Source: Vicugna vicugna
Lineage: Eukaryota
DNA: 64,000 bases
Reading direction: 5' to 3'
Assembly (NCBI GenBank): GCA_013265495.1
Contig: MU058213.1
Span: 4,464,001-4,528,000 of the forward strand
The translations under genes and the position numbers were made by a program. The first letter of the stretch is position 1, and each line of letters starts with the position of its first letter. Below, one piece after another: positions 1,907 through 61,095 of the stretch. The notes beneath the pieces are model-generated. The model was not told where the DNA came from. It made no database searches and saw only the letters and a list, made by a program, of their open reading frames with translations.

Positions 1907-3556
1907 TTTTCTCTTTTTTTCAAACTTTTTTTTATTGAGTTATAGTCATTCTACAATGTGTCAAATTCCAGTGTAGAGCACAATTTTTCAGTTATACATG
2001 AACATACATATATTCATTGTCACATTTTTTTTCACTGTGAGCAACCACAAGATCTTGTATATATTTCCCTGTGCTATACAGTATAATCTTGTTTATAGAT
2101 TCTATGTTTTGAAATCTCAGCCTGTTCCTTCCCACTCCCGCCCCTTTGGCAACCACAAATTTGTATTCTATGTCTTATGAGTCTGTTTCTGTTTTGTATT
2201 TATATTTTGTTTTTTGTTTGTTTGTTTTTTCTCAGATTCTGCATATGGAATCTTTCTCTTTCTGGCTTACTTCACTTAGAATGACATTCTCCAGGGACAT
2301 TCATGTTGCTGCAAATGCCGTTATGTTGTCATTTTATGGCTGAATAGTATTCCATTGTATAAATATACCACATCTTCTTTATCCAGTCATCTGTTGATGG
2401 ACATTTAGGCTGTTTCCATGTCTTGGCTATTGCAAATAGTGCTGTTATGAACTTTGGGGTGCAGATGTCTTTTTGAAGTAGAGTTCCTTTTGGATATATG
2501 CCCAGGAGCAGGATTCCTGGGTCATATGGTAAGTCTATTCCTAATCTTTTGAGGCATCTCCATACTGTTTTCCACAGTGTCTGTACCAAACTGCATTCCC
2601 ATCAGCAGTGTAGGAGGGTTCCCTTTTCTCTACAGCCTCTCCAGTATTTGTCATTTGTCGACTTTTGAATGATGGCCATTCTGACTGGTGTGGGGTAATA
2701 CCTCATTGTAGTTTTCATTTGCATTTCTCTGATAATTAGTGATATTGAGCATTTTTTCATGTGCCTGTTGATCATTTATATTTCTTCCTTGGAGAATTGC
2801 TTGTTTAGGTCTTCTGCCCAGTTTTGGATTGGGTTTGTTTTTTTTCTTATTAAGTCATAATGAGCTGCTTATATATTCTGGAGATCAAGCCTTTGTCGGT
2901 TTCATTTGCAAAGATTTTCTCCTATTTCATAGATTGTCATTTTGTTTTACTTATGGTTTTCTTTGCTGTGCAGAAGGTTGTATGTTTAATTAGGTCCCAT
3001 TTGTTTATTCTTGCTTTTATTTCTATTGCGTGGGTAAACTGCCCTAGGAGAACATTTTTAAGATGTATATCAGATAATATTTTGCCTTTATTTTCTTCTA
3101 AGAGGTTTATTGTATCTTATCTTATGTTTAAGTCTTTGATCCATTTTCAGTTTATTTTTGTGTATGGTGTAAGGGAGTGTTCTAGCTTCATTGATTTACA
3201 TGCTGCTGTCCAGTTTTCCCAACACTATTTGTTGAAGAGACTGTCTTTATTCCATTGTATATTCTTGCCTCCTTTGTCAAAGATTAGTTGACCAAAAGTT
3301 TGTGGATTCATTTCTGGGCCCTCTATTCTGTTCCATTGGTCCATATGTCTGGTTTTGTACCAATACCATGCTGTTTTGATTACTGTAGCTCTATAGTATT
3401 GTCTGAAGTCTGGAAAAGTTATTCCACTCCAGCCTCTTTTCTTCAGTAATACTTTGGCAATTTTAGGTCTTTTGTGGTTCCATATAAATTTTATTATAAT
3501 TTGTTCTAGTTCTGTGAAATATGTCCTGGGTAATTTGATAGGGATTGCATTAAATC
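1907..3556 (-). mobile_element. Relatively young 5'-truncated LINE-1 (ORF2 C-terminus, 3'UTR, poly-A) with 14-bp TSD
   Basis: Minus ORF 2329-2589 is the L1 ORF2 C-terminus ([14 protein letters not shown]...WKQPKCPSTDDWIKKMWYIYTMEYYSAIK); T-rich tail at the left end; identical ttaaatattttctt at 1893-1906 and 3557-3570. Confidence 0.95.
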
Positions 3557-4459
3557 TTAAATATTTTCTTACTAAATACTGTTAGTAATGATAAGGACAT
3601 GATAGTCTCCCTGACTGCAAAGCTTCATCTTTTTAACCATCACACTGTACTAACTCTGAGTTCCACATATGAACACTTCCTCATATACAAATAAATTACA
3701 GTTTGCTAATATAGCTGAGTTATAAATATAATTGTGGAACTCAGTGGTTCATAAATTATGTATTTTTTTAGTTTGGGAGATACTGTTGCATAATATTTTC
3801 TAAGTATGGATTTTTCTTTTTGTAATTATTTAGATGATATTTAACAACTATAAAATCTTGTCCTCTGAGAGGTTATAATTTAGTATAGGTTATATAATAA
3901 TTACCATTCTCGTTTCATTTAGGCTACTGCATTTTGTATTTTCCTACATAATTTAATGAGTGGGAAGCAGGTATTTTGTTTAGTTATGACTGAGTAATTG
4001 AGAAGAAGCCTGGGAACAGAATGTTGAAGTGATTTATGAACAAATTTTATTGACTCTTTTCTGGGTGTGAGTTGATTTGAGTACTAAGTTTCCAAATTTC
4101 AAAGTTTCTACATTCCAAAGAGTGTGTTATCAGTCTTCGGCCTGAGTGTTAGGCTGCTAACCATGTAACTTTATTCTTTTAATGACAAGTTTTATTTATG
4201 AGGAAAAATTAGGCTGAAGTAGAAAAATATGTTTTATGTTGAAATTCAACTACCAGGATCTTTAAAAATCCAATAAAATAAAATAAAGTAGAAGAAAAGC
4301 ATACTAATTTCATATTTATAGTAAAAATCACTCCTATCATTAGGTATTGCTAACTTTGTAAGAAAATGACCTCTCACATTACTATAATTTTGAGATCTTC
4401 TTTGAATGAACAAATCCTCTTCGTTACTATAGGTAAGAGTAACTTTCCTACAGCAAGAC

Positions 4460-14233: not shown

Positions 14234-14414
14234 TTTTTTTTTTTTTGAAGTATAGTCAGTTTACAATGTTTTGTCAATTTCTGGTATACAGCATAATACT
14301 TCAGTCATACATGAATATAACATATATTTGTTTTCATATTCTTTTTCACCATAAGTTACTACAAGATATTGAATATAGTTCCCTATGCTATACCGTATGA
14401 ACTTGTTTAATCTA
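14234..14414 (-). mobile_element. Short young L1 3'-end insertion
   Basis: Poly-T then gaagtatagtcagtttacaatg...gatattgaatatagttccctatgctata; homologous to the 3'UTR at 1930-2095. Confidence 0.85.
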
Positions 14415-16509
14415 TGTTTCCTGTGTCTGTGGGGGAAAGTTTCAAACATAGGCGCTCTCCCTTAGGATTGAACTTTGGAATCATGAAAGAGAGAAAACAT
14501 GTTTTGGTGGTCACCCAAATTGTCTGGTGGCAACAGCTTTGAATGCTGTTCAGTTTCTTCTGCTGATTTGCTGAGACCAGTCACAACTCCTCTTACCTTC
14601 ATGTTTTTCTTTCTCTATAATGTGATACAATTTTGGTGATGTTACACAGTTCCAGGAACAAGCAAACTTCAACTAAAATATTGATTATTTTTACTCATAT
14701 TTCTGTAAACTACAGGAATGATTGTCTTTTGTATTTTCATAAGAAAATAAAATGACCTCACAACATCCATTCAAATTGACTGCTTGTCCATTTTAACAGT
14801 AAACACATTTTATTATGCTTCCCTGCCAGGCTTTCGGAACTGGCACACCTGATCTCTATTCATCCCTATCTGGTACTCTGAAAACTACTAGATAGAGCCT
14901 TTAAAGATGTCAGGCCATAGAAGAAAATCATAAATATGATTTTCATAAAGAAAATCATAAAAAAGGAACTTCAAGATCCTCTCTAATCTGGCCACTCTAC
15001 AAATTAATAAATTGAGGTCATTTGCATTCTCTGATCTGATTGAAGACTATACAACTAATTAGTAAGAATTTGAACTATAATCTTAGTCTTCTGGACTTGA
15101 ATCTTGTATCCTCTTCTAGTGTAAGATATTTCCATTTAGAAACAAGTTAGGCATTCTTTCTAAAGTAAATTATATGTAATAAGCTACCATTGAGGTTATC
15201 TTGCCAGTTACCCTCTGTGGAGTAATAATTCCTTTGGCTAATCACTGATTTCTTCCTGAAAAGGACCAACCTCTGTTATAGTAGGTGTATTTTCATAGAA
15301 TGTGTATGTTCTTTCTTTTAGACTGCTGACGATACAGTCAGTATTAGACTTACGTGGACAAGGCATCAAATTTATATTTATATGTAAGTGAACACTGATG
15401 TATCCAGAACCCAAATATGAAATTCGTTTTCTGTATGTTGTTTTTATGAGGGGCAAAATGATAAGAATATTAACATCAGAAATTAATCACCCATGCCAAC
15501 TTTCTGTGTCGTCAAAGGTCAGTTTAGACTCTGCTGTGTAACTTGCACTGGTTTCCACAAGAACCCTGGCTCTGGTGATTGATGTTCCTAGTGGGATCTA
15601 AGGATCTATAAGGTCCCAAATTGCCCTCCGAATTATCAACGAAATCTGGTGTTTAAAAACGTGTGTACAGCCAGCCTTGATCCACCAAGGATTTGAGTTG
15701 ACTAGTTTGCTTTTTTAGGATCAAACATGTTTTCCCTAATTTTTCTTTTTAAATTAAGTCATCTCTACATGGTGTGTGGTGAAATAGTTATTCAGAATAC
15801 TCAATTATCAAGGATATCCCTGCCTGCAAACTCTCTGAAAAGGAGCCAGCAAGAGCTCTGTGAGTGCTGCCTAGTACAAGGCAGTGGAGCTCTTCCTTGA
15901 TGGAGTTATAGCAATGTATCCTGGAAATTGTTGTGTTTATCTTTTCCTGTAATTATGCACTATACAGTGTCACCCCTAAAGCACTGGGAACATGTGAGGA
16001 AAGCAAAGCCAATGAATGTACATTTAAGTTTTATTCAGGGTCACCTAATTTTTATTTGCAGTTCAGTTTTAATTAGGTTATTTTAGGACGATGTAGCTAG
16101 TGCCTTTTTATCCTTCATACATGATTACCGACTTCCCTTTTTATTTTCATTCTCCTTTGTCCTTTATCTCTTCAGCATACTATTGTTTAACAGAGCTTTG
16201 TATAAGATACGAGCCTTGCATGCCAACTTTGATGTGGGAGAATGAATCATGTTGCCATTGATCTCAGCCTGAACAGAACAGCCATCTTCTAATAGGAGGA
16301 AGTTTCTAGCTTCAGGTTGTTTCAGCCCTCCATGCCTTGCTTAGCCTGCCATGTAAAGTCAGTTGCTTTACTCCAAACAGCACTGTATTAATATGCACAA
16401 CATGACCATTTTCAGTAGAAGGTTATTAGAATGCTAGTTTGTATCCTCTAGTGAATGAAATGATGTGTGATTATGAAGTCATCAGGCATGGACCAGTAAG
16501 ACTCCAGAG

Positions 16510-16670
16510 AGCCTGCCTCCTCCGAGGTCCTCGGGGGGCCATTGATTGGTGGCCATGTGTTTGTGCCCGATAGACTGTGAAATGGTGTGTTGCTACACGG
16601 CTGTGTTGCACCTGCGCCCCACCGAGGTGATTGATTGGTTTGGTCATGTGGAATGTTCCCATCTGGTCTG
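16510..16670. promoter_or_regulatory. Candidate intronic promoter/enhancer (CpG-retaining; reverse CCAAT boxes and E-boxes)
   Basis: Six CpGs within about 16522-16624; ATTGATTGG twice (16541, 16630), CATGTG twice, GCACCTGC at 16608-16615; no recognisable repeat. Motif evidence only. Confidence 0.45.
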
Positions 16671-17344
16671 CAGTAATGTGGTTTTTTTCTTTTTTTTCTT
16701 TTTCATCTGTGAATAGCAAGTGCTGGCTGGATAGTTACAGCAAACAGTTTCAGAGGCTAAATAATCCTTTTCCTCTAAGAACAAATTGGGATTTGAAGGA
16801 GTTTGTTTTTGCTCGCCTTGTTTTTATGAAGGTAGTCATTCTCCATCACATTGCTACCCCTTCTCTCTAGGATGTTATACTCCTTTCTCTTTGACCTGTT
16901 TCCACCTCCTCCTCCTCCTCCTCATACTAGATTAAAATGTGCTTTATATATTTCTAATTTGTGCAACTCTAAAGCAAAATCTTTTTTTTTTTTTTTTTTT
17001 TGCTATTTGTTGTTCTGACTTGCCACTTGAGGTGGTTTGCAATTTTTTAAAAGATGGTTTCTATGATCCTAATTGGATTATCAAAGTGCTGATGTATTTT
17101 TAAGCCTTCATTTAACCTTGCAAAAGTAGTGGTTTATTTATTGAAAACTACTGATGTTGCAGTTTAAATGTCAAGAAATTATTTATTAGGTTCTTTTTTT
17201 AAGAAGATTCTATAGTTATATTGGGCGGTCTTGTTTGATATTTCTTAATCTTAGTCCTTTTTCATAATTGATCTATTCATTCCACCTAATGACTAATTAC
17301 ATATCAGAGCACATCATCAGCCACATTCATCATAGTAGAATGTA

Positions 17345-20306: not shown

Positions 20307-20453
20307 CAACCTATAATGAAAAAGTATGAAAAAGGATATATATGTGTATGTATATGTGTATGTGTGTGTATATATATATATAACTGAATCAGTATCCTGT
20401 ACACCAGAAACTAGCACAACATTGTAAATTAACTATACTTCAATTAAAAAAAT
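20307..20453 (+). mobile_element. Short L1 3'-end insertion with TSD
   Basis: taactgaatcagtatcctgtacaccagaaactagcacaacattgtaaattaactatacttcaattaaaaaa; atattaccacc at 20296-20306 and 20454-20464. Confidence 0.85.
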
Positions 20454-21176: not shown

Positions 21177-23532
21177 CAGGCATACTTTGGAGATTTTGTG
21201 GTTTTGGTTCCAGGCCACCACAATAAAGCAAGTCACATGAATTTTTGGTTTCTCAGTGCATATAAAAGTTACCTTTACACTGTACTCTAGTCCAGTAAAT
21301 ATGCAACAGCATTATGTCCGAAAGAAGTGTACATCCTTAATTAGAAATACTGTACTGCTAAAAAATGTTAACCATCATCTGAGCTTTCAGCAAATTACAA
21401 TCTTTTTGCTGGTAGAGGGTCTTACCTCGATGTTGATAGCTGCTGACTGTTCCAGGGTGGTGATTGCTGAAGGTTGGGGTGGCTGTGGCAGTTCCTTAAA
21501 GTAGCAGTGAAGTTGGTTGCATTGATTGACTCCTTCTGTCATGAACAATTTCTCTGTCTCATTCAGTGCTGTTTTGATAGCATTTTAACTCACAGTAGAA
21601 CTTCTTTTAAAATTGGAATCAGGGCTCTCAGACTCTGCTGCTGCATTTTCAACTAAGTTTTTGTAGTATTCTAAATCTTTTCTTGTCATGTCAACACTCT
21701 TTCACAGCATCATCACCAGGAGTAGATTCCATCTCAAGAAATCATTTTGTTTGCTCATCCATAAGAAGCAACTCCTCATCTGTTCAAGTTTTCTCATGGA
21801 ATTGCAGCAATTCAGTCACACCCTCAGGCTCCGCTTCTATTTAGTTCTCTTGCTATTTCTACCATATCTGCAGTTACTTCCTCCACTAAAGTCTTGAACC
21901 TCCCAAAGTAATCCATGAAGGTTGGAACCTACTTCTTATAAACTTCTGTGTGTGTTCATATTTTGACCTCTTCCTGTGAATCATTCTTAATGGCATCTAG
22001 AATGGTGAAACCTTTCCAGAAGGTTTTCAGTTTACTTTGCCTTGGTCCATCAGAGGAATCACTCTTTGGCAGCTATAGCCTTGTAAAATATTTCTGAAAG
22101 AATAAGACTCAAAAGTTAAAATTACACCTTGGTTCATGACCTGCCAAATAGATGTTGTGTTAACAGGCATGAAAACAATATGAATCCTATTGTGCATCTC
22201 CATCAGAGCCCTTAGGTGACCAGGTGTATTGTCAGTGAACAGTAGTATTTTGAAAGAAATCTCTTTTTCTGAGCAGTAATTCTCAACAGTGGGCTTAAAA
22301 TATCCACTAAACCATGTTGTTAACAGATGTGCTGTCGTCCAGGCTTTGTTCTTCCATTTATACAGCACAGGCAGAGTAAATTTCACATAATTCTTAAAGG
22401 TCCTAAGATTTGAGGAATGGTAAGTGAGCACTGGCTTCAACTTCAAGTCACCAGCTGCATTAGCCCCTAGAAAGAGAATCAGCCTGCCCTTTGAAGCTTT
22501 GAAGCCAGGCATTGACTTTTCCTCTGTAACTATGAGAGTCCTGGAGGGCATCTTCTTCCAAGATAAGGCTATTTTGTCTACATTGAAAATACGTTGTTTA
22601 GTGTAGCCACTTTCATTAATGATCTTAGTTAGAGCTGGATAACTCACTACAGCTTCCACATCAGCAATTGCTGCTTCACCTTGCACTTTTATGTTAGAGA
22701 GATGGCTTCTTTTCTAAAACCTCATGAAGCAAATTCTTGTTAGCTTCAAACTTTCCTTCTGCAGCTTCCGCACGCCTCTCAGTCTTTATAGAATTGAAGA
22801 AAATTAGGGCCTTGCTCTGGATTAGGCTTTTTCTTAAGGGGATATTGTGGCTGGTTTGATCTCCTGTCCAGACCACTAATACTTTCTCCATATCAGCAAT
22901 AAAGCTATTTCACTTGTTCCAGTGTTCACTGGAGTAGCACTTTTAATTTCCTTCAGGAACTTTTCTTTTGCTTTCACAACTTGGTTAACTGCTAGGCACA
23001 AGAGGCCTAGCTTTCAGCCTATTTTGGCTTTCGACATGCCTTCCTCACTAAGCTTCATCATTTCTAGCTTTTGACTTAAAGTGAGACTTGCATCTTTTCC
23101 TTTCACTTGAACACTTAGAAGCCATTGTAGGGTTATTAACTGGCCTAATTTGTTGTCTCTCAGGAAATAGGGAGGCCCGAGGAGAAGGGAGAGAGACGGG
23201 GAACAGCAGGTCAGTGGAGCAGTCAGAACACACACAACATTTATTAAGTTTGCCATCTTACATCGGCACAGTTTATGGTGCCCCAGAACAGTTACAGTAG
23301 TAACATCAAAGATCAGACATCACCATAGCAAATAGAGTAATAATGCAAAAGTTTTGAATATTGCAAGAATTACCAAAATGTGACACACAGACATTAAGTG
23401 AGCAAATGCTGTTGGGAGAATAGCACCGATAAACTAATTGACACAGGGCCACAACCGATGTTCAATTTGTAAAAAAATGTAGTATCTGCAAAGTACAGTA
23501 AAGTGAAGCACAGTAAAAATTAGGTTTGTCTG
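21177..23532 (-). mobile_element. Full-length Tigger1-family (pogo/Tc1-mariner) DNA transposon
   Basis: TA|caggcatact... at the left and ...aggtttgtctg|TA at the right (decayed CAGGCATACCT TIRs, TA TSD); 2356 bp; transposase fragments in the ORF track. Confidence 0.95.
21368..23125 (-). pseudogene. Disrupted Tigger1 (TIGD1-like) transposase
   Basis: MASKCSSERK start at 23125; LSQKLEMMKLSEEGMSKAKIG; 219-aa DDE segment at 22027-22686 ([20 protein letters not shown]...[12 protein letters not shown]); several frameshifts and stops. Confidence 0.9.
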
Positions 23533-24020
23533 TATGTATAAACAAATTTTAAGCTGTTAAAAGTTTCCTTTTCAGGTGCATGCTACCAGTTGATGCATTG
23601 TATTACTAAGACTTCTTCCATTATTAAGTGATCAAAATTTTAGATTTAGGGTATTATAACTAATATTTTTGAAATCAATAAGTTTTAGATAAGTGAATTT
23701 ATGGTTGTATTAACCAGTAGCTGAAGTCATTTAGCTCACTTTAGTTGAGAGCTTGCGTTCAAATTTGTTTTATATTAGAGCTGAAGTTTTCGAAAGGCCC
23801 TTGGGAGGTCTTCTAGCTAAGATCATGTTTTCACTGTCCCAAACACAAATTAGTCTCTGTCCATTTCAGCCTTGTCTGCATTTCTCCCCTCTGCTCCCCA
23901 CTCCTCTCTGGTACCCCTCCTCCCTAATATTTTTTTTCTTCCTTTGGTATTTACTTGCCTACTGCTCTCAAATTTCTTACTCTTTCTTACTTTCCTCCTA
24001 CTCTCAAATTTCTTATTCTT

Positions 24021-24092
24021 TTTTTCATTGAAGTATAGTTGATTTACAATGTTGTATTAATTTCTGGTATACAACGTAGTGATTCGTTTATC
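24021..24092 (-). mobile_element. 72-bp L1 tail insertion with 16-bp TSD
   Basis: ttgaagtatagttgatttacaatgttgtattaatttctggtatacaac flanked by caaatttcttattctt at 24005-24020 and 24093-24108. Confidence 0.9.
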
Positions 24093-24568
24093 CAAATTTC
24101 TTATTCTTATGTATCACAAGGAATGATGATCTTTGATAACCCATTTTATGGCTACTAATTAATTACATACACTAAATTTCAAAAGTAAAGGCCTGATGTC
24201 CTGTTATATGGATGTTTTTGGAAATCTTAATAAACATAATTACATTTCAACTGCCTGTCTCTATGTGCCCCAGCATAACTTAAGAGCATTAGTAGTGACT
24301 CTGATAGTTGAGGACACATTCTCTGGACTAAGCATACTCTAGTGAGTCTTAGTACTCTTCCCTGGAAAAATCAGTAGTGATATTCATCACACAGGGCTTT
24401 GCCTCCTGTGTCATAGCTAAACCACCAGAGAAATCTTCCATGTACCTAGCCATCATCTTTATTTGCCACCACTAAACAATCTCTTCAATTTATGTCTTTA
24501 AATTAAAACCTTAGAAAAGTTTGGGGGTTACAGCTTTGGCCCACAGTCATACAGAAAGCTATCCTTGC

Positions 24569-24883
24569 TCTTGTAGCCCCTTTGAGCTTCTGTGACAAAG
24601 TACCACAGACTGGGTGATTTGTAAACGACAAATATTTATTTCTCCCAATTCTAGAGGCTAGGAGATCAGCGTACCAGCTTGGTCTAGTGCAAGCCCTTTT
24701 CCAGATGATAGGCTTCTCGTTGTGTCTTCACGTGTTGGGCCTCTTGATGAGGGCATATTAATCCCATTCATGAGAGCTCTACCTTCATGACCTAATTCAA
24801 AAGTCCCCCTCATAATACCATTTGCCTTAAGTGTTAGATTTCAACATGAATTTTGGGTAAACGCAGACATTCAGACCATAGCA
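24569..24883 (-). mobile_element. MLT1A-like MaLR solo LTR
   Basis: acaaagtaccacagactgggtg...gacattcagaccatagca (reverse complement TGCTATGGTCTGAATGTC, an MLT1A-type start); 5-bp TSD cttgc at 24564-24568 and 24884-24888. Confidence 0.85.
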
Positions 24884-24980
24884 CTTGCCCATTAGGGGCC
24901 AGGAATATTCAAGCCTTTCTTCTGATACATTCATAAGAAAAAGTAACAGCATCAAAAAGCTTTACACATGTTTTCATTAA

Positions 24981-27344
24981 CACATTGATCACCCACTGTG
25001 GATCGAGTGTTTCCTGCAGAGCCCAAATTCATCCTTCACCAGTGTGACACACTAATAATATATGTTCTTATAATTAATCTGTTTGTTTTTCCAGTATAAA
25101 TGGAATTGTTTTAAAAAACAATTTCTTTTCTTATTTCCAATTTTCAACCTCTTTACAGTTTTATTTTTTCTTGGAATGTCATTGTTCTGCATGGAATAAA
25201 TTCAGATAACGGAATAGTCTGGGATGCTGTGGCATTACTTTGCTGTTCATTAGCTGGAGAGTGATATATGATCCGATTAGTAGAAACAATAGATAAGCAG
25301 TTGTTCAGAATGGTACCCTTTTTGTTAATCTGCTGTCTTCGACTCAGCTCGGCAGTTTTATTCTGCATTTCAAAGTCTTCACATCTTTCAAGTATCGTTC
25401 TGAGGTTTTTTGTACCCTTACAGTGCCTGTCAGACAGTGTAAAAACACAGTTGAAAGTGACACTAGTAGTGACGACGAAGTGATCCATGTCAGAAGACAC
25501 AGAGATGAAATTTTGTCAAGTTCAAGCTCAGAGAATGTGGAGACAGGTGATGTTGAAGTTGAAAACAATGAGTTTTTAGAACAATTAGTTGTAGAAGAGG
25601 AAGAAATAGATGTTAGTAGTGATGCACTGGGAAGTACTCAGTGGAAAGAGTTTACTGGCAGACAAAAGTCCTTTATATTCACAGGAAAAAGTGGACTTCT
25701 GACAGAATTACCTCTTGATAACAGCCCAGGTGAAGTTCTTTTGCTATTTTTAGATGACAAAATAATAAACTTTCTGGTAAAGGAGACAAACAGATGCAGA
25801 ACAAAAATTACTTCAACATCTAAATATGGAATATAGTTGAATAAAGAGATGGAAACTTACTTCTGAAGAAATTTAAAAATTCCTTCTTCTAATTCGGATG
25901 AATCTAGTGAAACTAGTATCTACGACTAAATAATGTGTCATAATCATTTTGAATTATTATTACCAAATTTGCACTTTGCAAATAATGAACAATTGAAAGA
26001 GGTGAAAGGCTTGGAAAAGTACTACCTTAACACTTTGACTGAAAATACCAAAAAATTTTTTCACCAGGCCCAGATGTCATAATCAATGAGACAGTGGTTC
26101 ATTGGAGGGGGAGGCTTACATTTAGGCAATATATGCTAAATAAGAAGACACACAAATATGGAATAAAATTATTTAAGTTATGTTCAACCGAAGGTTATAT
26201 GTGGTCGATAAAAATATATTCTGGACAAGAGACTGGTGGAGTTAGGCAAATTGGATTAGCTCAAAATATTTGCAGTAAGCTTGCAGAAGAATTATGGAAT
26301 GAAAGACATACCTTGTATGTAGGTAACTTCTACACCAGCTACAAATTGGCCCTAAATTTTTAAGTTTGAAAACTCGTGTTGTTGGGACTGCAGAGCGTAG
26401 TAAAAGTTTATTATGTTAATGACGTTAAGATGTTATTGTTTAGGTTAATGATGTTAAGATGTTTAAGATGTTAATGTCCCATCCACTAAAAAGAGGTGAA
26501 ATGGTGTTGAGGGAAGATGACAATGGAATTGTCATTCTAAAATGGAAAGATGTTTGGAATATAAGAATTTTAAACAAAACATGCACCTGTTATGGTGTCC
26601 AGTTCACATTTGTCTGCTTGTCACCACAGTCTTATAAAAATGAAGCCACTAGCCATACTTGATTATAATAAAGGAAAATGTGGCATCAGTCTAAGTGACC
26701 AGATTGTTTCATACTCAACAATTTTATGAAAAAGTATCAAATGGTGCTGAAAATTAGCACTACATCTACTTCTTGGGATTTCTGTCATAAACCCACATAT
26801 TCTATACCAGGCAAAAGCAAATTGAAAAATAAAAATATCAGAATTTAAGGAACTTTTAGTTGAGGAATGATTATATTCTCCAAATATTAGGTCCAGTGAT
26901 ATGCAAAAGGATAAAGAAGAAGTGACTCACAATTTACAAATTAGAAAAAAATCCACAAGGCAAAACAATCAGAAGAATGTGCGTCCTCTGTTATCAGAAA
27001 AGCAGGCACGCTCTGGAATGACAAGAAGCTAGAAAAAAATGTAAAAAAGGCAGGAACATATTGTCCTAGTTGCCCCTAAAAAACCGCAGCTTTGTATAAA
27101 TTGTTTCAGTGAATATTGTAAGAAATTCTATACTTCTGTTCAAAAGAAAGGTTTTTTATCTATCTATGTATGTACTTATATGTTGTTACTATTAAATACT
27201 GGTATTACAAATGAAAACTGTTGCAAATTACTTGTGAAAACCTGCATAATTGGATGAAGGAAAGCATCACCCATATCTGGGTGACAGGGCCCCCTAGGAG
27301 ACAAAACTATCACCCAGATTTGGGTGATGGTGGCAATCAACATG
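24981..27344 (+). mobile_element. Fossil piggyBac DNA transposon with both ends (2364 bp)
   Basis: TTAA at 24977-24980 and 27345-27348. Left end CACATTGATCACC, right end reverse complement CATGTTGATTGCC; both reduce to CACGTTGATCGCC by CpG decay. Internal piggyBac transposase remnants. Confidence 0.93.
25423..27130 (+). pseudogene. Decayed piggyBac (PGBD4-like DDD) transposase with C-terminal Cys-rich domain
   Basis: Acidic N-terminus (25423-25836); HFELLLPNLHFANNE; VIINETVVHWRGRLTFRQY..KKTHKYGIKLFKLC; LYVGNFYTS; LKWKD; KPLAILDYNKGKCGISLSDQ..KSIKW; CVLC, TYCPSCP and LCINCF motifs at 26975-27110. Many frameshifts and stops. Confidence 0.93.
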
Positions 27345-27524
27345 TTAAGTACCGTAATAATGCTCTGTAGAAAATTTGGAAATTATAATAAGCCAAAAGG
27401 AAGACAGTAAACTTGATTCACTCATAATCCCGTCATTCAGTGAATCAGTGTTAACATTTGGAATCTAGCAGAGATTCTCTTTCCCACAGGAATGTGACAG
27501 GTAATTTGTCTTTTAATTGAAAAG

Positions 27525-28090
27525 TTTATTTCTCAAAAAAATTAAAACCACAGTTACCATATGACCCAGCAATTCCACTTCTTGATATACACTCCCCAAA
27601 ATTAAAAGATCCTTAAAGAGATATTTGTACACCATGTTCATAGCAGTATTAGTCACAGTAGTGAAAAGGTGGAAGCAGTCCATATGTCTATCAACAGATG
27701 AACAAGTGAACAAAATATGGTATATACCTACAATGGAATATTATCCATCCTCAAAAAGAAAGAAATTCTGACATGTTATGGCATAGATGACATTATGCTA
27801 AGTGAAGTAATACAGTCACAAAAAGACAAATACTGTATAATTCCCCTTGTATGAACTGTAATGAGTAGTGAAATTCACTGAAACAGAAAATAGAATGGTG
27901 GTTGCTAGGGGCTGGGAGGAAGGGAGAATGAAGAATATCTAATGGTTATAGAATTTTAGTTTTATAAAATGAAAGAAATTCTGGAGATTGGTCATACAAT
28001 GTAAATATGCTTAACTCTACTGAATTGTACACTTCAGATGGTTAAGATGATAAATATTACGTTAATTATATTACCACAATTGAAAACGCA
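27525..28090 (+). mobile_element. L1MB-like 3' end
   Basis: gttaccatatgacccagcaattccact...ccatgttcatagcagtatt...gaatggtggttgctaggggctggg...tactgaattgtacact. Confidence 0.85.
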
Positions 28091-29794
28091 CAATTTATTG
28101 AACCAGAGATAAAAATATATAAATGTCTATCAGTCACCAATCTTTTGAAGTAGAAGCAAGGCCTGTCTTTAGTGGATGGGGCAATTTGATTGGGTTGTAG
28201 ATTACTTTTCTTGCTTTAAACACCTGTAGTTCACTGAAAATCACAGATGGTGAATTATGAGTATAGTTTTAGCAAGAAAAATAATATACAGAGGCATAGT
28301 AAGAAATATTTCTGGAGCAATTGTTTTCATTCCTTTAGATTTCTGTGGATGGCCTCCCCACCCCTCATCTTTTGCAGTTGTCTAGCTACTGTACGCAAAT
28401 CATTAGATGATGATTTAGGGGCAGCTTCCTCATGCATTCAACTCAGTTTTCATAGAAATGACTACCTTTCTTTTTGCATTCATATTTCCTCAGTTTAAGG
28501 GTTTCATTTAGTTACACAGTCACAATAAAAAGTACAGTTGTCATCAAACAGATTTGGGGATGAATAGAACTAGCTCTTGGTAAGCATATAACTGAACTAG
28601 TGAGAGTAAAAATGTGAGGGTATTAAGAGAACAGCCTGTCAACCATGAGCACTCAGTATGTCGTAGAGACCAGTCCTACGTTTTCTAGAGGGAATGTGTT
28701 AAGGGCATTAGTTAATCTCAAGGGTTGATTTACCTAGTATTTTTCTTTCTAGTCTTTTTCCTTTACATACTTTTTCACAGATGAGAGCATATTTAGTCCA
28801 ATCTTGTATTGGACTTTTTCACTTACTATTATGTAATAACACTTACTATAAATATGATTTTGAAGGACTCTGTCCGTGGTAATCTACTGTGTAGTGTTTC
28901 ATATAGTATAACTTTCTCCACTCTTCACCTGTTAATTGGCCATTTAGATTGTTTAGAAACAATACTGTATTGAGCATCTTTTATGTGTAAAGTTTTATCT
29001 TCCCTGACTTGATTATTTAGAATAAATTTCTAATATTTAAAAGTTGCTTGGTCAAAAGGTAAGAGTTTTTTGGGTGGTTTTATGGTACACATGTTGTTGA
29101 TACATCTGATACACATAAAATTGTTCTTTATTTTCTCCTCAAACCCAGGTACTTGGGAGAACTTAGTGCCTCATGTATGCATTGAGTCCTGAGTGGATGT
29201 CTGTTCAATATACACAGTCTATTTTCCACTAGATCCTAGCTTTTCATCTTTGTTTTTTAGACAGGCAAGTCCATTGACATACTGTTATTTCCTCTTTTTG
29301 TAATTGCTTGGGCAGTCTCTCTTACTCATACAATGCTGTTTCTTCCTCTCAGCCCCTCTTCCTTCCTAATCTTCCCAGCTCTTGTCTACATGTTCTGTGA
29401 AACATTGCATGATGGCCGTCATCTACCTTGCTCTCTTTTCCGACTCCTTTTTTTGAAATTAATTCAATCAACAATACTAGATGCTGTGAGAAAATAGCAG
29501 TGAGCAAAACTTTGTGGCCCTTCCTTCATGAAGCTTATGCTCTAGTGTTAAATTGTGCCATGTATTTGTCCTGTTTAACCTACTAGATTGTAGGTGAATG
29601 TGTTAGGTACATACAAGGTATTCATTGAACTGCTCGATTGACCATTCTAGATATACAGAAAAGAAAATTGCCAAGGGTTACGAATATTAATACAGGGATA
29701 TTGTTTAATGATTGCCACGTGGCTGGGTCATTGATTATCAGCCTTGGAAGGGTCCTTAGAAGTTTATAATCCAATAACCCTTTAATGTTTTAAT

Positions 29795-51345: not shown

Positions 51346-51410
51346 GAAAAACGTCAGAGAGAGGCTCATTTTCCTTGTATAGCAGAGACACCGGATTACC
51401 AGGCTGTCAA
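51346..51410 (+). CDS. TCF12: Internal coding exon of TCF12 (HEB, class I bHLH E-protein), probably exon 6; 65 bp, phase 1 in, phase 0 out
   Basis: Polypyrimidine tract ttttttctttgttttatag (AG 51344-51345) and donor GTAAGT at 51411. Translation (G)GA AAA ACG TCA GAG AGA GGC TCA TTT TCC TTG TAT AGC AGA GAC ACC GGA TTA CCA GGC TGT CAA = [22 protein letters not shown], matching the TCF12 N-terminal region as recalled (...[33 protein letters not shown]...). Exon number is from memory. Confidence 0.95.
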
Positions 51411-57327: not shown

Positions 57328-58345
57328 ATTGTATTTCTGTACAATCACAATGAACAATTAAAAAATGAAATTATCAAAATAGTACTATTTATAGTCACAT
57401 CAAAAAGCATAAAGTACCAAGGGATAAATTTGACAAAAGACTATAAAGCTTCAACAATGAAAACTATAAAATACTTGTGAGAAAACTCAAAGAAGATTTA
57501 AATAAATAGGGAGATACACCATGTTCATGAATTGAAATACTCAGTATTATTTAGATGATAGTTCCACTGGGCTATCAGTTGAATGCAGTCCCAGTAAGAA
57601 TTACTGAATTAAGAACATTGACAAGATTATTTAAAAGTTGATTTGAAAAGGAATAGGATTAAGAAGAGCCAAAGGAATCTTGGAAAAGAGGAAAGGAGGA
57701 AGGACTTACTTTACCTAACTTAAAGACTTTCTATAAAGCAAAAGTAATCAAGACAGCACAGTTTTTGTATAAAAACTGACAAAAAGATCATGGAATGAAA
57801 AAGAAGTCCAGAAAGGGACCCACACCTATATGGCAAATGATGTTTGATTAAAGCACCCCAGCAGTTCAGTGAGAAAAGAAAGATCTCTTTTTACTATATG
57901 GTGCTGGAAGAACTGTATAGCAACATAGGTGGAAAAAAAAAAAGGACTTCCACTCTACCTTACATCATATATAAACATAAATTTGAAATGGATCATGGAT
58001 TTAAAGATGAAAACTGAAATAATAAAGGTACTAGGGAGAAAATAAATTAATATCTTTGCTGCTTCAGGGTAAATAAAAAAATTTTAAGGAAGGTACAGAA
58101 AGCATATAACATGAAAGAAAAGTTGATGAATTGAACTTAGTTACAATTTAAAACTGTGTTCATCCAAAAACACCATCAAGAAAAGGAAAAGAGAAGCCAC
58201 AGAATAGGAGAAAGTATTAGCAACACATATCTGACAAAGGACTTCAGTGTAGAATATATAATGATCATTGACAAAGAAGCAACCCAATTTTTAAAAATGG
58301 CCAAAACACTTGAGTAGACACTTCACAAAAGAAAATATGCAAATG
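55535..58345 (+). mobile_element. Old L1 ORF2 body (continues at 61096-61810 after a nested insertion)
   Basis: Decayed EN/RT-region sequence: ttttctgaccacaaaagaattaaattagaa, tatgatcatttccatagatgtagaaaaagtattc, ctataaagcaaaagtaatcaagacag. Confidence 0.88.
57267..57326 (+). repeat. (GATA)15 tetranucleotide microsatellite
   Basis: 15 uninterrupted GATA units read directly. Confidence 0.97.
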
Positions 58346-61095
58346 CAGGATTTCTGGTCAAGATGGCAGAGTGGTAGGACCACAAGCTCACGTCTCCTCA
58401 TGACTACAACAAAACCACAGCTGACTGGTAAACAACCATAGAAAAAAAGACTGGAACCTGCAGGAAAGATCTTCAACTGGAAACATAAAGAGGGAACCAC
58501 AGCAGGACGGTAAGAGGGGCATGCTCACGATATAATCAGACCCCATACCCCCCAGGTGGGTGACCCACAAGCTGAAGAATAATTAAGTCACAGAGGCCCT
58601 CCCACAGGAGTGAGAGGTCTGAGCCCCACGTCAGGCTCTTCAGCCCAGGGTTCCAACATTAAGAGGAGGAGACCCCAGGACATCTGGTTTTGAAGGCTTA
58701 ACTCTAGGAGCCCCGTGGGACTAGGGGAAACGGAGACTTCATTTTCTTAACAGGTGTACGGATTCTCACGTGCGCCAGGTCCAAGGTCAGAGGCAGTGAT
58801 TTCATAAGAACTGGGGCCAGATCAGCCTGCCTGCTGGTTTTGGAAGGTCTCCAGGGAATGTAGGGGACGGCTGTGGCTCACCCAGGGGACATAAAAGCTG
58901 GTGGTGGACATTTTGGGAATGTTCATTACAGGAGCTTTCCTAGAGGCTGAAATCTTGATTGGATCATTAACACCGAGACCTAGCCCCACCCAATAGCCTG
59001 TAGGGAAGACTCAGGCCAAACAATATGCAGGGTAGGAACACAGCCCCACCCATCAGCAGACTTCCTAAGCTACAAAGGCCTCTAGACACAGCCTTACCCA
59101 CCAGAGGTCCAGAACCAAGCTTCCCCCGGCAGTGGGCAGGCTCCTCCTGCCAGGAAACCTGCATAAGCCTCCAGTCCAGCCTCACCCACCAGGGGGCAGA
59201 TACCAGAAATAAGAAAACAACAATCCCAAAGCCTGTGGAAGGAATCCACAAACACAGGCAGACTCCACACTGGGACCAGCTGGACCCCTTAGGTGACAAG
59301 AGAGGAGTGTACTGCTGGGATGCATAGGACGTCTCCCACAGAGGGTCACCTCTCCAAGGTCGAGAAATGTAACTAACCTACCTAAAAATACAAATAGAAA
59401 GATAGACAATATGAGGCAGCAGAGGAATATCTCCCAGGCCAAGTCACAAGATAAAATCCCAGAAGAAGTAATTCACTTGATGAGGAGATAGTCAATTTAC
59501 TTGAGAAAGAGTTTAAAGTAATGATAGCAGAGATGTTCAGAGAACTCACAAAGAGTATAGATGCACAGAGTGAAGTTTTTAGCAAAGAGTTGGGAAATAA
59601 AAAGAATATCCAAACAGAGTTGAAGAATAAAATCACTGAAATGAATAACACACTTGAAGGAACCAAGAAAATACAAACTGAGGCAAAAGAACAGATCAGT
59701 GAGCTAGAAGACAGATTAGTGGAAATCACTAATGCAGAACAGAAAAAAGAAAACTAAGAATGAAAAGAAACAAGGAACATTTAAGAGAACTCTGGGACAA
59801 CATGAAACACACTAATATTTGCATTATAGGGGTCCCAGAAAGAGAGAGAGAAAGAACCTGAGACAATTTTTGAAGAGATAATAATTGAAAACTTCCCCAA
59901 CTTGGAAAAGAAAACAGTCACCCAAGTCCAGGAAGCAGAGTTCCACACAGGATCAACCCATAGAGGAACACACCAAGGCACATAGTCATCAAATTGACAA
60001 CAATTAAGGATAAGGAGAAAATACTAAAATTAGCAAGAGAAAAGCAACAAATAACATACAAGGGAACTCCCATAAAATTATCAGCTGATTTTTCAGCAGG
60101 AGCTCTACCGGCCACAAGGGAGTGGCATGATGTATTTAAAATGATGAAAGGGGAAAGCTTACAACCAAGGATACTCTATCCATTCAGCAAGGCTCTCATT
60201 CAGATTTGATGGAGAAATCAAAAGCTTCACAGATAAAAGCTAAAAGAATTCAACATCACCAAACCAGCTTTACAAATGTTAAAGGACCTTCTCAAGTCAT
60301 CAAACCATGAGAAAAGAGAACAAGAAGAAGAAAGAAAAGGGAATAAAAACCTACAAAAGATTGCTTTGGCGATCTCGGTGTCTTTTATAGTTCCATATAA
60401 ATTTTGGAATTGTTTGTTCTAGTTCTGTGAAAAATGTGAGTTTTTTTTGACAGGGGTTGCATTGGATTTGCAGATTGCTTTGGGTAGTACAACCATTTTG
60501 ATAATGTTCATTTTTCCAGTCCAAGAGCACAAGATATCTTTCCATTTCTTTGTATCACCTTCAGTTTCCTTCATCAGTGTTGTACAGTTTTCAGAGTGTA
60601 GGTAACCTCCTTGATTAAGTATATTTCTAGATATTTTGTTGTTTTTGATGCAATGGAAATGTTTATGCCAGTTATAAAATTATGGTTTTTGAAGTGAAAA
60701 TAAAAGTGAATGAAGGGCCACAAATGGCTAAATATCCTTTCTTAGAGGTGAGTTGTATTCCATTACATATATATGCTGCGTTGTCTTTATCCATTCATCT
60801 ATTGATGTGCACTTAGGATGCTTCCACATCATGGCAATTAAAAATATTGCTCTTAATAGCGGAGTATATGTATCTTTTTAAATTAATTCTTATTTTGTGA
60901 TTGGCTTTATTCCTTTGATAACTATGTAAGTTTAAAAAGCTAAAGCTCTAAATGTTCTTAGAAACAATGAAGAGTACTTATATGCAAATTTTTTAAAATA
61001 TGTGTAGTATGTTGTATATATATATTTACATGCAATATATTGTATATGTGCTGTCAAATTGTAACAATTCTATCTAATAAAACTGAAAAATGTAA
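58346..61095 (+). mobile_element. Nested L1-derived insertion: 5'UTR and ORF1, no sense ORF2 (HAL1-like or rearranged L1)
   Basis: Starts ...ggtcaagatggcagag (L1 5' end). ORF1 fragments at 59521-59757 and 59994-60209 (KEKILKLAREKQQITYKGTPIKLSADFS). Antisense ORF2 pieces at 60352-60655 and 60720-60890. Diverged TSD aaaagaaaatatgcaaatg (58327-58345) / aaaaggagatatacaaatg (61096-61114). Confidence 0.8.

Follow-up and report, generated by a model that had tools for sequence, protein, structure and literature searches.

The window examined here, a 64-kb stretch of Vicugna vicugna DNA, contains at 24977-27348 a dead, full-length piggyBac element. A sequence-only reading had described this interval as a fossil piggyBac with both ends, and its termini, the remains of its transposase and its sister copies bear that description out. 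The features of the element are as follows.

24977 to 24980, no strand: left target-site duplication (TSD), TTAA; sister copies break off at 24977 and their flanks are unrelated
24981 to 24993, forward strand: left 13-bp terminal inverted repeat (TIR), CpG-decayed; the same end occurs on 8-9 short derivative contigs per sequencing run, at loose ends before 27289
24997 to 25009, forward strand: half of the subterminal palindrome in degenerate form, still present in the ~83-bp derivative; its role is presumed
25423 to 27116, forward strand: decayed transposase open reading frame of about 560 codons, with 10 frameshifts and 8 in-frame stops
26085 to 26087, forward strand: first catalytic Asp by alignment (equivalent of Trichoplusia ni D268), now Asn
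26322 to 26324, forward strand: second catalytic Asp by alignment (equivalent of D346), now Gly
26391 to 26473, forward strand: copy-specific expansion of 9-bp units, 83 letters against 33 in one sister contig
26688 to 26699, forward strand: third catalytic Asp (equivalent of D447), now Ser; the fourth (equivalent of D450) is kept at 26697
26928 to 27116, forward strand: Cys-rich zinc-binding C-terminal domain, retaining 6/6 Cys and the first His but without two other His
27191 to 27196, forward strand: ATTAAA, a putative polyadenylation signal by sequence motif
27267 to 27284, no strand: inner palindromic subterminal repeat of 18 bp, perfect but for one mismatch
27310 to 27327, no strand: outer 18-bp palindromic subterminal repeat, one mismatch from perfect and 43 bp from the inner one
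27332 to 27344, reverse strand: right 13-bp TIR, CpG-decayed; seen also at loose ends of sister copies
27345 to 27348, no strand: right TSD, TTAA; TTAA follows the right repeat in sister copies too

Outside the element, a 65-bp exon-like stretch at 51346-51410 has AG/GT borders and an open translation in phase 1. We take it to be a TCF12 exon, in which case the element would be intronic. The window also holds a LINE-1 ORF2 fragment whose closest named relatives, among the best 120 of 1,327 matches, are from pig (75%), Molossus (74%), lion (72%) and sheep (71%), with no camelid among the named rows of those 120, a ranking that indicates a laurasiatherian host and would also suit a bat; LINE-1 3′ ends at 1926 and 14236 presumably represent types resembling those of camelids. 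Comparison of the window with itself at E 1e-5 returned pieces of long repeats and no dispersed short family. Lineage SINEs are abundant in ruminants, pigs, whales, horses and carnivores. Nothing in Rfam matched within the 64 kb.

The TTAA duplications reported by the sequence-only reading lie at both ends of a 2,364-bp interior, and TTAA is the target-site duplication expected of piggyBac. TIRs of the superfamily are short, about 14 bp, and start with C[C/A/T][C/A/T] (PMC5381638), and CAC ends are common among piggyBacs (PMC10140906); those of the present element are 13 bp long and begin with CAC. The sequence of the left end is CACATTGATCACC, and that of the right end, as its reverse complement, is CATGTTGATTGCC; both differ from CACGTTGATCGCC by two mismatches, and 4/4 mismatches fall at CpG positions. 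With up to two mismatches allowed, CACGTTGATCGCC matches the 64 kb at these two ends only, and shuffles gave a mean of 0.17 matches and reached two in 1 of 100, a test that is partly circular because the pattern was taken from the two ends themselves. The raw ends are identical at 9 of 13 positions, and the ends alone are weak evidence because 38 of 14,358 TTAA pairs spaced 1.5-4 kb agree at least as well; the case therefore stands on the coding remains and the sister copies. The latter provide independent confirmation of the reconstructed TIR, in that they end in CACGTTGATCGCC followed by TTAA and have unrelated flanks.

Transposase motifs running from an acidic N-terminus to a Cys-rich C-terminus had also been recognized in the earlier reading. 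Frameshift-aware alignment of the read-through translation to six homologs, intact or partial, agrees, with colinearity over 537-561 positions to two Anthophora proteins. The single open reading frame with a PF13843 core that is expected of a piggyBac is recovered at E 8.9e-23 and 4.7e-25 and is colinear with intact homologs, the former value being the Pfam match to a 106-aa open reading frame at 26043-26360. The Cys-rich domain expected at the C-terminus retains all six Cys; in the intact homologs PF13842 itself matches only below its curated cut-off (E 0.004-0.007). The start of the frame was placed by likeness of the N-terminus to P0043, P0040 and P0020, and the in-frame ATG expected near 25423 is missing. 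Four further stops lie within the local duplication of 9-bp units, bringing those read through to 12 overall. With Asn, Gly and Ser at the catalytic D-D-D (T. ni numbering from PMC5381638), 10 frameshifts and 8 stops, activity is ruled out for the copy at 24977-27348, which is dead.

Public sequencing runs served as the source of sister copies. Of 24 runs, 20 (9 studies, 3 organism labels; contig totals of 1,959-2,151 million letters) carry 83-89% of the sampled words of 23500-29000. Contigs of four runs were aligned on 24880-27480 at an 80% likeness cut-off, giving 292, 263, 272 and 271 contigs per run, of which 50, 41, 49 and 53 are at least 99% alike and 108, 103, 102 and 106 are under 90%; these contig counts are lower bounds, not copy numbers. 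The rows listed comprise 40 of 782 substitutions, 12 of 225 indels, 15 of 55 joints, 25 of 332 loose ends and 32 of 1,272 pieces. In run X1, loose ends behind 27326, 27327 and 27329 (3, 10 and 7 contigs among those listed) run through the right repeat and TTAA and then diverge, and the other three runs resemble X1 in their loose ends. At the opposite terminus, 7-9 contigs per run end at 24977 with unrelated flanks (9 in X1, agreement 0.5). The protein likeness to insect elements described below could in principle reflect insect DNA that contaminates, or was mis-assembled into, a mammalian contig. This explanation is refuted by the presence of the sequence across the 20 runs and by the diverged sister contigs: 4/4 aligned runs have pieces with 0-1 differences over 340-376 bp together with hundreds of diverged sister contigs, and the copy itself shows CpG decay and many lesions. 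We assign it a negligible probability.

Internally deleted derivatives fall into two size classes, and both keep both ends. Among the joints listed, 25002-25009 is joined to 27301-27310 and 25166-25206 to 27205-27258, and of the ten for which junction letters are known, five yield 82-84 bp and five 324-336 bp. In the ~83-bp form, some 29 bp from the left terminus are joined to some 54 bp from the right, and the latter part includes one palindrome. At the positions listed, contigs departing from the window number 11-28 per run near the ends and 3-12 in the interior, and derivatives thus outnumber long copies. The search for further copies advised in the sequence-only reading has accordingly disclosed a multi-copy family with MITEs, represented by diverged sister contigs and deleted derivatives.

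The lesions of the present copy are private to it; 5 of the 10 frameshifts (25987, 26026, 26945-6, 27033-9 and 27077) coincide with sister indels among the 12 of 225 listed. For the 26 coding substitutions listed, which fall in 25 codons, the effect of the sister majority letter was compared with the residues of five homologs. The exchange is silent in 3 codons, and among the 22 non-silent codons it leads toward the hymenopteran residue in 13, away from it in 2 and neither or both in 7. The excess of 13 over 2 indicates that the ancestral protein was nearer the insect proteins than the fossil is, perhaps 65-70% identical to them as a rough estimate. A domesticated PGBD gene is single copy, with an intact reading frame under purifying selection (PMC5381638). 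The element described here is multi-copy, retains both ends, has a broken reading frame and is non-silent in 22 of the 25 tested codons, and domestication is ruled out.

A different kind of co-option would make the copy an alternative last exon of the host gene by exon trapping, yielding a host-transposase N-terminal fusion like PGBD3 in CSB. The element and the host exon candidate are read in the same sense. A run of pyrimidines leads to a CAG at 25423, which would be in phase 1, like the candidate exon, and in frame with 137 open codons, and ATTAAA lies downstream at 27191, a layout described as general for piggyBac (PMC2268245). However, the catalytic residues are lost, and no purifying selection is visible because only 3 of the 25 tested codons differ silently. 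The longest lesion-free stretch is 375 bp, which arises by chance in 21% of random placements and in 2% if it is required to come first, and the AG at the putative acceptor may derive from a mutated start codon. Exon trapping thus strikes us as very improbable, and we continue to treat the copy as a decayed member of a transposon family.

Among known piggyBac groups, SG3 and SG4 have subterminal direct repeats, which are palindromic in most SG4 members (PMC5381638). Assignment of the present element to either group would be tentative: palindromic direct repeats occur twice at its right end, and its left end has no more than a degenerate half, where an overlapping 18-mer at 24989 matches the right-end unit weakly (7/18 mismatches). 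The outer palindrome stands 4 bp from the right TIR in this copy and 3 bp from it in 5-7 sister contigs per run, in which the letter at 27329 is absent. The arrangement recalls that of piggyBat (piggyBac1_ML of Myotis lucifugus, PDB 9c0f), likewise an element of a mammalian host, in which motif, 3 bp and palindrome form units that recur every 44 bp as against 43 bp here, and in which each unit is bound by a dimer of transposase whose Cys-rich domains grip the palindrome (PMC11707139). By analogy with piggyBat, the right end may offer two dimer sites and the left end a weak one. In piggyBat, however, the palindromes occupy the left end and are absent from the right, whereas the two clear ones here lie downstream of the reading frame; piggyBat is active whereas this copy is dead. 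Membership in the piggyBat/piggyBac1_ML family was rejected on a match between the 106-aa open reading frame and PDB 9c0f of E 2.8e-8 and 37 bits. T. ni piggyBac (IFP2, PDB 6x67/6x68) shares TTAA, a short TIR, a palindromic subterminal repeat and an alignable DDD-D, and has a 3-bp spacer at one end (PMC10140906), but its protein is distant, and it carries one palindrome per end rather than two at one end and a degenerate half at the other.

The protein comparisons point instead to Hymenoptera. Identity of the read-through translation to two Anthophora quadrimaculata proteins (CAK9796923.1 and CAK9801711.1) is 57.0% over 561 and 58.1% over 537 positions, to a Dinoponera quadriceps protein (XP_014484795.1) 59.9% over 454, and to Athalia rosae 57.0% over 507; two further homologs without an organism name are 55.7% and 61.7% identical. 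Matches that name an organism are all arthropod, 18/18 among 65 matches in one transposase search and 19/19 among 63 in another, the best being from Hymenoptera and none (of the 18 and 19) from a mammal. Scores of the 106-aa open reading frame are 159 bits for an ant protein, as against 37 bits for piggyBat and 33 bits for the T. ni element. The read-through was also placed in a tree with 60 homologs chosen from about 235, obtained by a quick search without bootstrap and without named mammalian piggyBac; in this tree the fossil sits on a long end branch (0.57) within a clade of 15 rows (SH-aLRT 99) whose named members are 10/10 Hymenoptera (sawfly, ant, wasp and bee), four others having no name. 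Elements of Anthophora, Dinoponera, Athalia, Osmia, Polistes and Habropoda therefore appear as colinear transposases in one well-supported clade, at 57-60% identity despite the decay of the fossil. In bee elements CAC ends, repeats of 13-18 bp and lengths of 2.3-2.6 kb are common, as here (PMC10140906). The Vicugna copy differs from the hymenopteran elements in being mammalian, dead and CpG-decayed, and the likeness to them concerns the proteins.

Wider searches extended this comparison. A search of 1.84 billion representatives gave 5,954 matches, the best at 216 bits, with no near-identical relative among the 150 listed. From 184 candidates a metagenome scan retained 6 loci, whose identity to the bee protein is 32-50% and which are too distant for their ends to be compared, and a viral scan returned relatives in 0/213. 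As a separate lead, three top clusters for the bee protein in Atlas consist mostly of arthropods and one mostly of chordates.

Vertical descent across the arthropod-vertebrate split would not leave a neutrally decaying element with about 60% protein identity, and horizontal entry is therefore the best reading. The invasion from outside that the sequence-only reading had entertained is supported as likely by likeness to a distant taxon (57-60% identity of the decayed transposase to Hymenoptera) and by nesting within a hymenopteran clade. The closest affinity to Hymenoptera may nonetheless mirror annotation, since protein databases by nature do not include mammalian families that have died, and some unannotated genome may contain a closer relative.

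The same family could also have invaded the bat, lemur or tenrec lineage and have been named there, which would make the Vicugna element another landing of a known piggyBac. For bats, 29 piggyBac transfer events have been reported, and some of the elements are also found in lemurs (PMC10162687), CAC ends are widespread (PMC10140906), and a Molossus protein is among the top LINE-1 ORF2 matches. The piggyBat protein is distant, however, and published lengths differ: 2,527 bp for piggyBac1_Mm, 2,639 bp for piggyBac2_ML and 240, 276 and 348 bp for lemur MITEs (PMC2997546), and 140 bp for MER85 (PMC2268245), compared with 2,364, about 83 and 324-336 bp here, length being a weak test. Primate MER75/PGBD4, MER85/PGBD3 and Looper, and lemur piggyBac1_Mm, piggyBac2_Mm and npiggy, resemble the present family in having few autonomous copies and more MITEs, and are set apart from it by published lengths and by the lack of mammals among the protein matches that name an organism. 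MER75 and MER85 begin with CCC. On balance we regard membership in an already named mammalian family as improbable and retain a separate horizontal acquisition as the preferred reading.

The timing of this acquisition was estimated from six long sister pieces, which differ from the copy by 364 substitutions over 2,618 sites (13.9%), a K2P of 0.156 or 0.078 per copy; the 80% cut-off and the reliance on 6 long pieces pull this distance downward, and CpG and possible subfamily structure push it upward. The CpG observed/expected ratio of the element is 0.26, compared with 0.10-0.21 in the 24 windows that lie clear of it. The distance corresponds to 36 My at 2.2e-9 per year (10.1101/2022.12.28.522108) and to 61 My at the camelid rate of 1.29e-9 per year (PMC10162687 table S3); subtraction of an assumed 2-3 points for CpG gives 27-51 My, for an overall range of 27-61 My. 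The camelid branch since the 64-My pig split measures 0.082-0.083 in the same table, and insertion before that split is conceivable because the per-copy distance of 0.059-0.078 comes close to the whole branch. Lineage specificity is likely, by a narrow age margin.

The family may thus be older than the host lineage, having invaded a cetartiodactyl or laurasiatherian ancestor, and would then be present in pig, cattle and whale and probably already have a name in a library. An upper age of 61 My at the camelid rate stands near the 64-My pig split, and mammalian curation targeted elements below 4% K2P, older ones being assumed known (10.1101/2022.12.28.522108). Against this, the distance after the assumed CpG correction (0.059-0.065) is shorter than the branch, ancestral Tigger1 in four bats, which represent other lineages, lies at 14-16% or about twice this value (PMC4971623 Table 2), and an ungulate-wide piggyBac was not found in the literature by titles and abstract starts. 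An older family is, in our estimation, unlikely but deserving of some weight, and invasion of a single lineage is the reading we carry forward.

Titles and abstract starts likewise disclosed no paper on a camelid or ungulate piggyBac invasion, in a search outside which most subscription journals fell. The terminal motif retrieved no transposon paper by title among the matches listed, nor was it found in the searched parts of the supplements of PMC10140906, PMC10162687, PMC13461360 and PMC4971623, which may lack consensus sequences; "piggy" is absent from the accessible text of PMC6675863. The family thus fits the earlier label of poorly described as far as the literature searched is concerned, with the caveat that, according to Table 8 of PMC8605555, four camelid genomes have four piggyBac MITE families each. 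These are known as a count only and may include the derivatives described here. Moreover, 20,638 piggyBac entries have been drawn from Dfam (PMC13461360), so that the present family may well have an uncurated model already. Unless a library check (Dfam, Repbase) finds it, the element represents a new member of the piggyBac superfamily with an ordinary piggyBac mechanism.

In sum, we think it likely that the copy is the dead autonomous member of a horizontally acquired piggyBac family that invaded one laurasiatherian lineage, probably camelid ancestors. The more specific account, in which camelid ancestors, already separate from other artiodactyls, received an unreported family from a Hymenoptera-centred clade during the Eocene to Oligocene, has in our view slightly less than an even chance. 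Some 27-61 million years ago the family would have passed horizontally from an arthropod-associated pool into the germ line. By established piggyBac biology, a DDD transposase would have attached by its core to the 13-bp TIRs and by its Cys-rich domain to the palindromic subterminal repeats, excised the element and reinserted it at TTAA with duplication of the TTAA. The derivatives were presumably mobilised in trans by the transposase of this family, and the 83-bp form may mark roughly the minimal ends required. Modest amplification would have been followed by death of the family, and the copy now has no function.

Horizontal transfer of DNA transposons into mammals has been reported mostly for bats, lemurs and tenrecs. 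Bat transfers mostly lack a match outside bats, with 19 of 221 elements matched (PMC10162687), and in a large survey the recent gain of DNA transposons was linked with a meat diet (10.1101/2022.12.28.522108). The present family, in a large herbivore and with close intact relatives among bees and ants, would contribute an example that can be dated and whose source clade can be traced, and its age falls in the range passed over by curation directed at divergences below 4%. Early artiodactyl branching could also be examined with TTAA insertions this old as clean presence/absence markers. If the proposed history is true, it constitutes an arthropod-to-herbivore transfer into a group without a described piggyBac invasion, and the 83-bp natural mini-element would define minimal ends for a transposon whose near relatives are intact in living bees and ants.

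Two stretches on the forward strand bear on how the dead full-length piggyBac element (24977-27348) is placed relative to its host gene:

51346-51410, + strand: exon-like stretch of 65 bp with AG/GT borders, reading open in phase 1
25404-25836, + strand: a run rich in pyrimidines, closed by the CAG at 25423, then 137 open codons

No Pfam match to the exon-like stretch was found; we take it to be a TCF12 exon, and given its strand the piggyBac would share sense with the host gene. The CAG at 25423, at the start of the transposase reading frame, is in phase with this candidate exon, and the length of the open stretch that follows it is not exceptional. The CAG could be the acceptor of an exon trap, with the piggyBac copy serving as an alternative last exon, or a mutated start codon.

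Older repeats and a second transposon fossil surround the element:

about 24560-24880: left flanking repeat, presumably an LTR-like piece
about 27500-28070: right flanking repeat, an old LINE-1 3' piece by self-comparison of the window
about 21180-23520, - strand: second DNA transposon fossil, a short way upstream of piggyBac

The piggyBac appears to interrupt neither flanking repeat. Within the upstream fossil, which we assume to be Tigger1-like, a 228-aa open stretch (22027-22713) matches PF03184 (E 1.4e-30).

LINE-1 remains lie elsewhere in the window:

1926-3558, - strand: LINE-1 3' end
14236-14419, 20369-20452, 24019-24091: short pieces of LINE-1 3' ends
about 58340-60470: LINE-1 5' region with ORF1 remains on the + strand, then a piece matching the first entry at window positions 3452-3551

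In the first, 118 aa of ORF2 remain open, and their best named match, among the best 120 of 1,327, is from pig (75%). The last appears to be a copy that is rearranged or nested. Self-comparison of the whole window (E 1e-5) revealed no dispersed short repeat family, and an Rfam search of it gave no match. At about 16480-16700, GATTGG motifs recur in a segment of higher GC content, which is absent among the self-matching repeats and is possibly regulatory.

In the transposase tree, a quick search without bootstrap that places the fossil in a clade whose 10 named members are all Hymenoptera, the transposases of the sawfly Athalia and the bee Osmia are separated by only about 0.08 changes per site, a distance which suggests that this piggyBac clade was also transferred among Hymenoptera.
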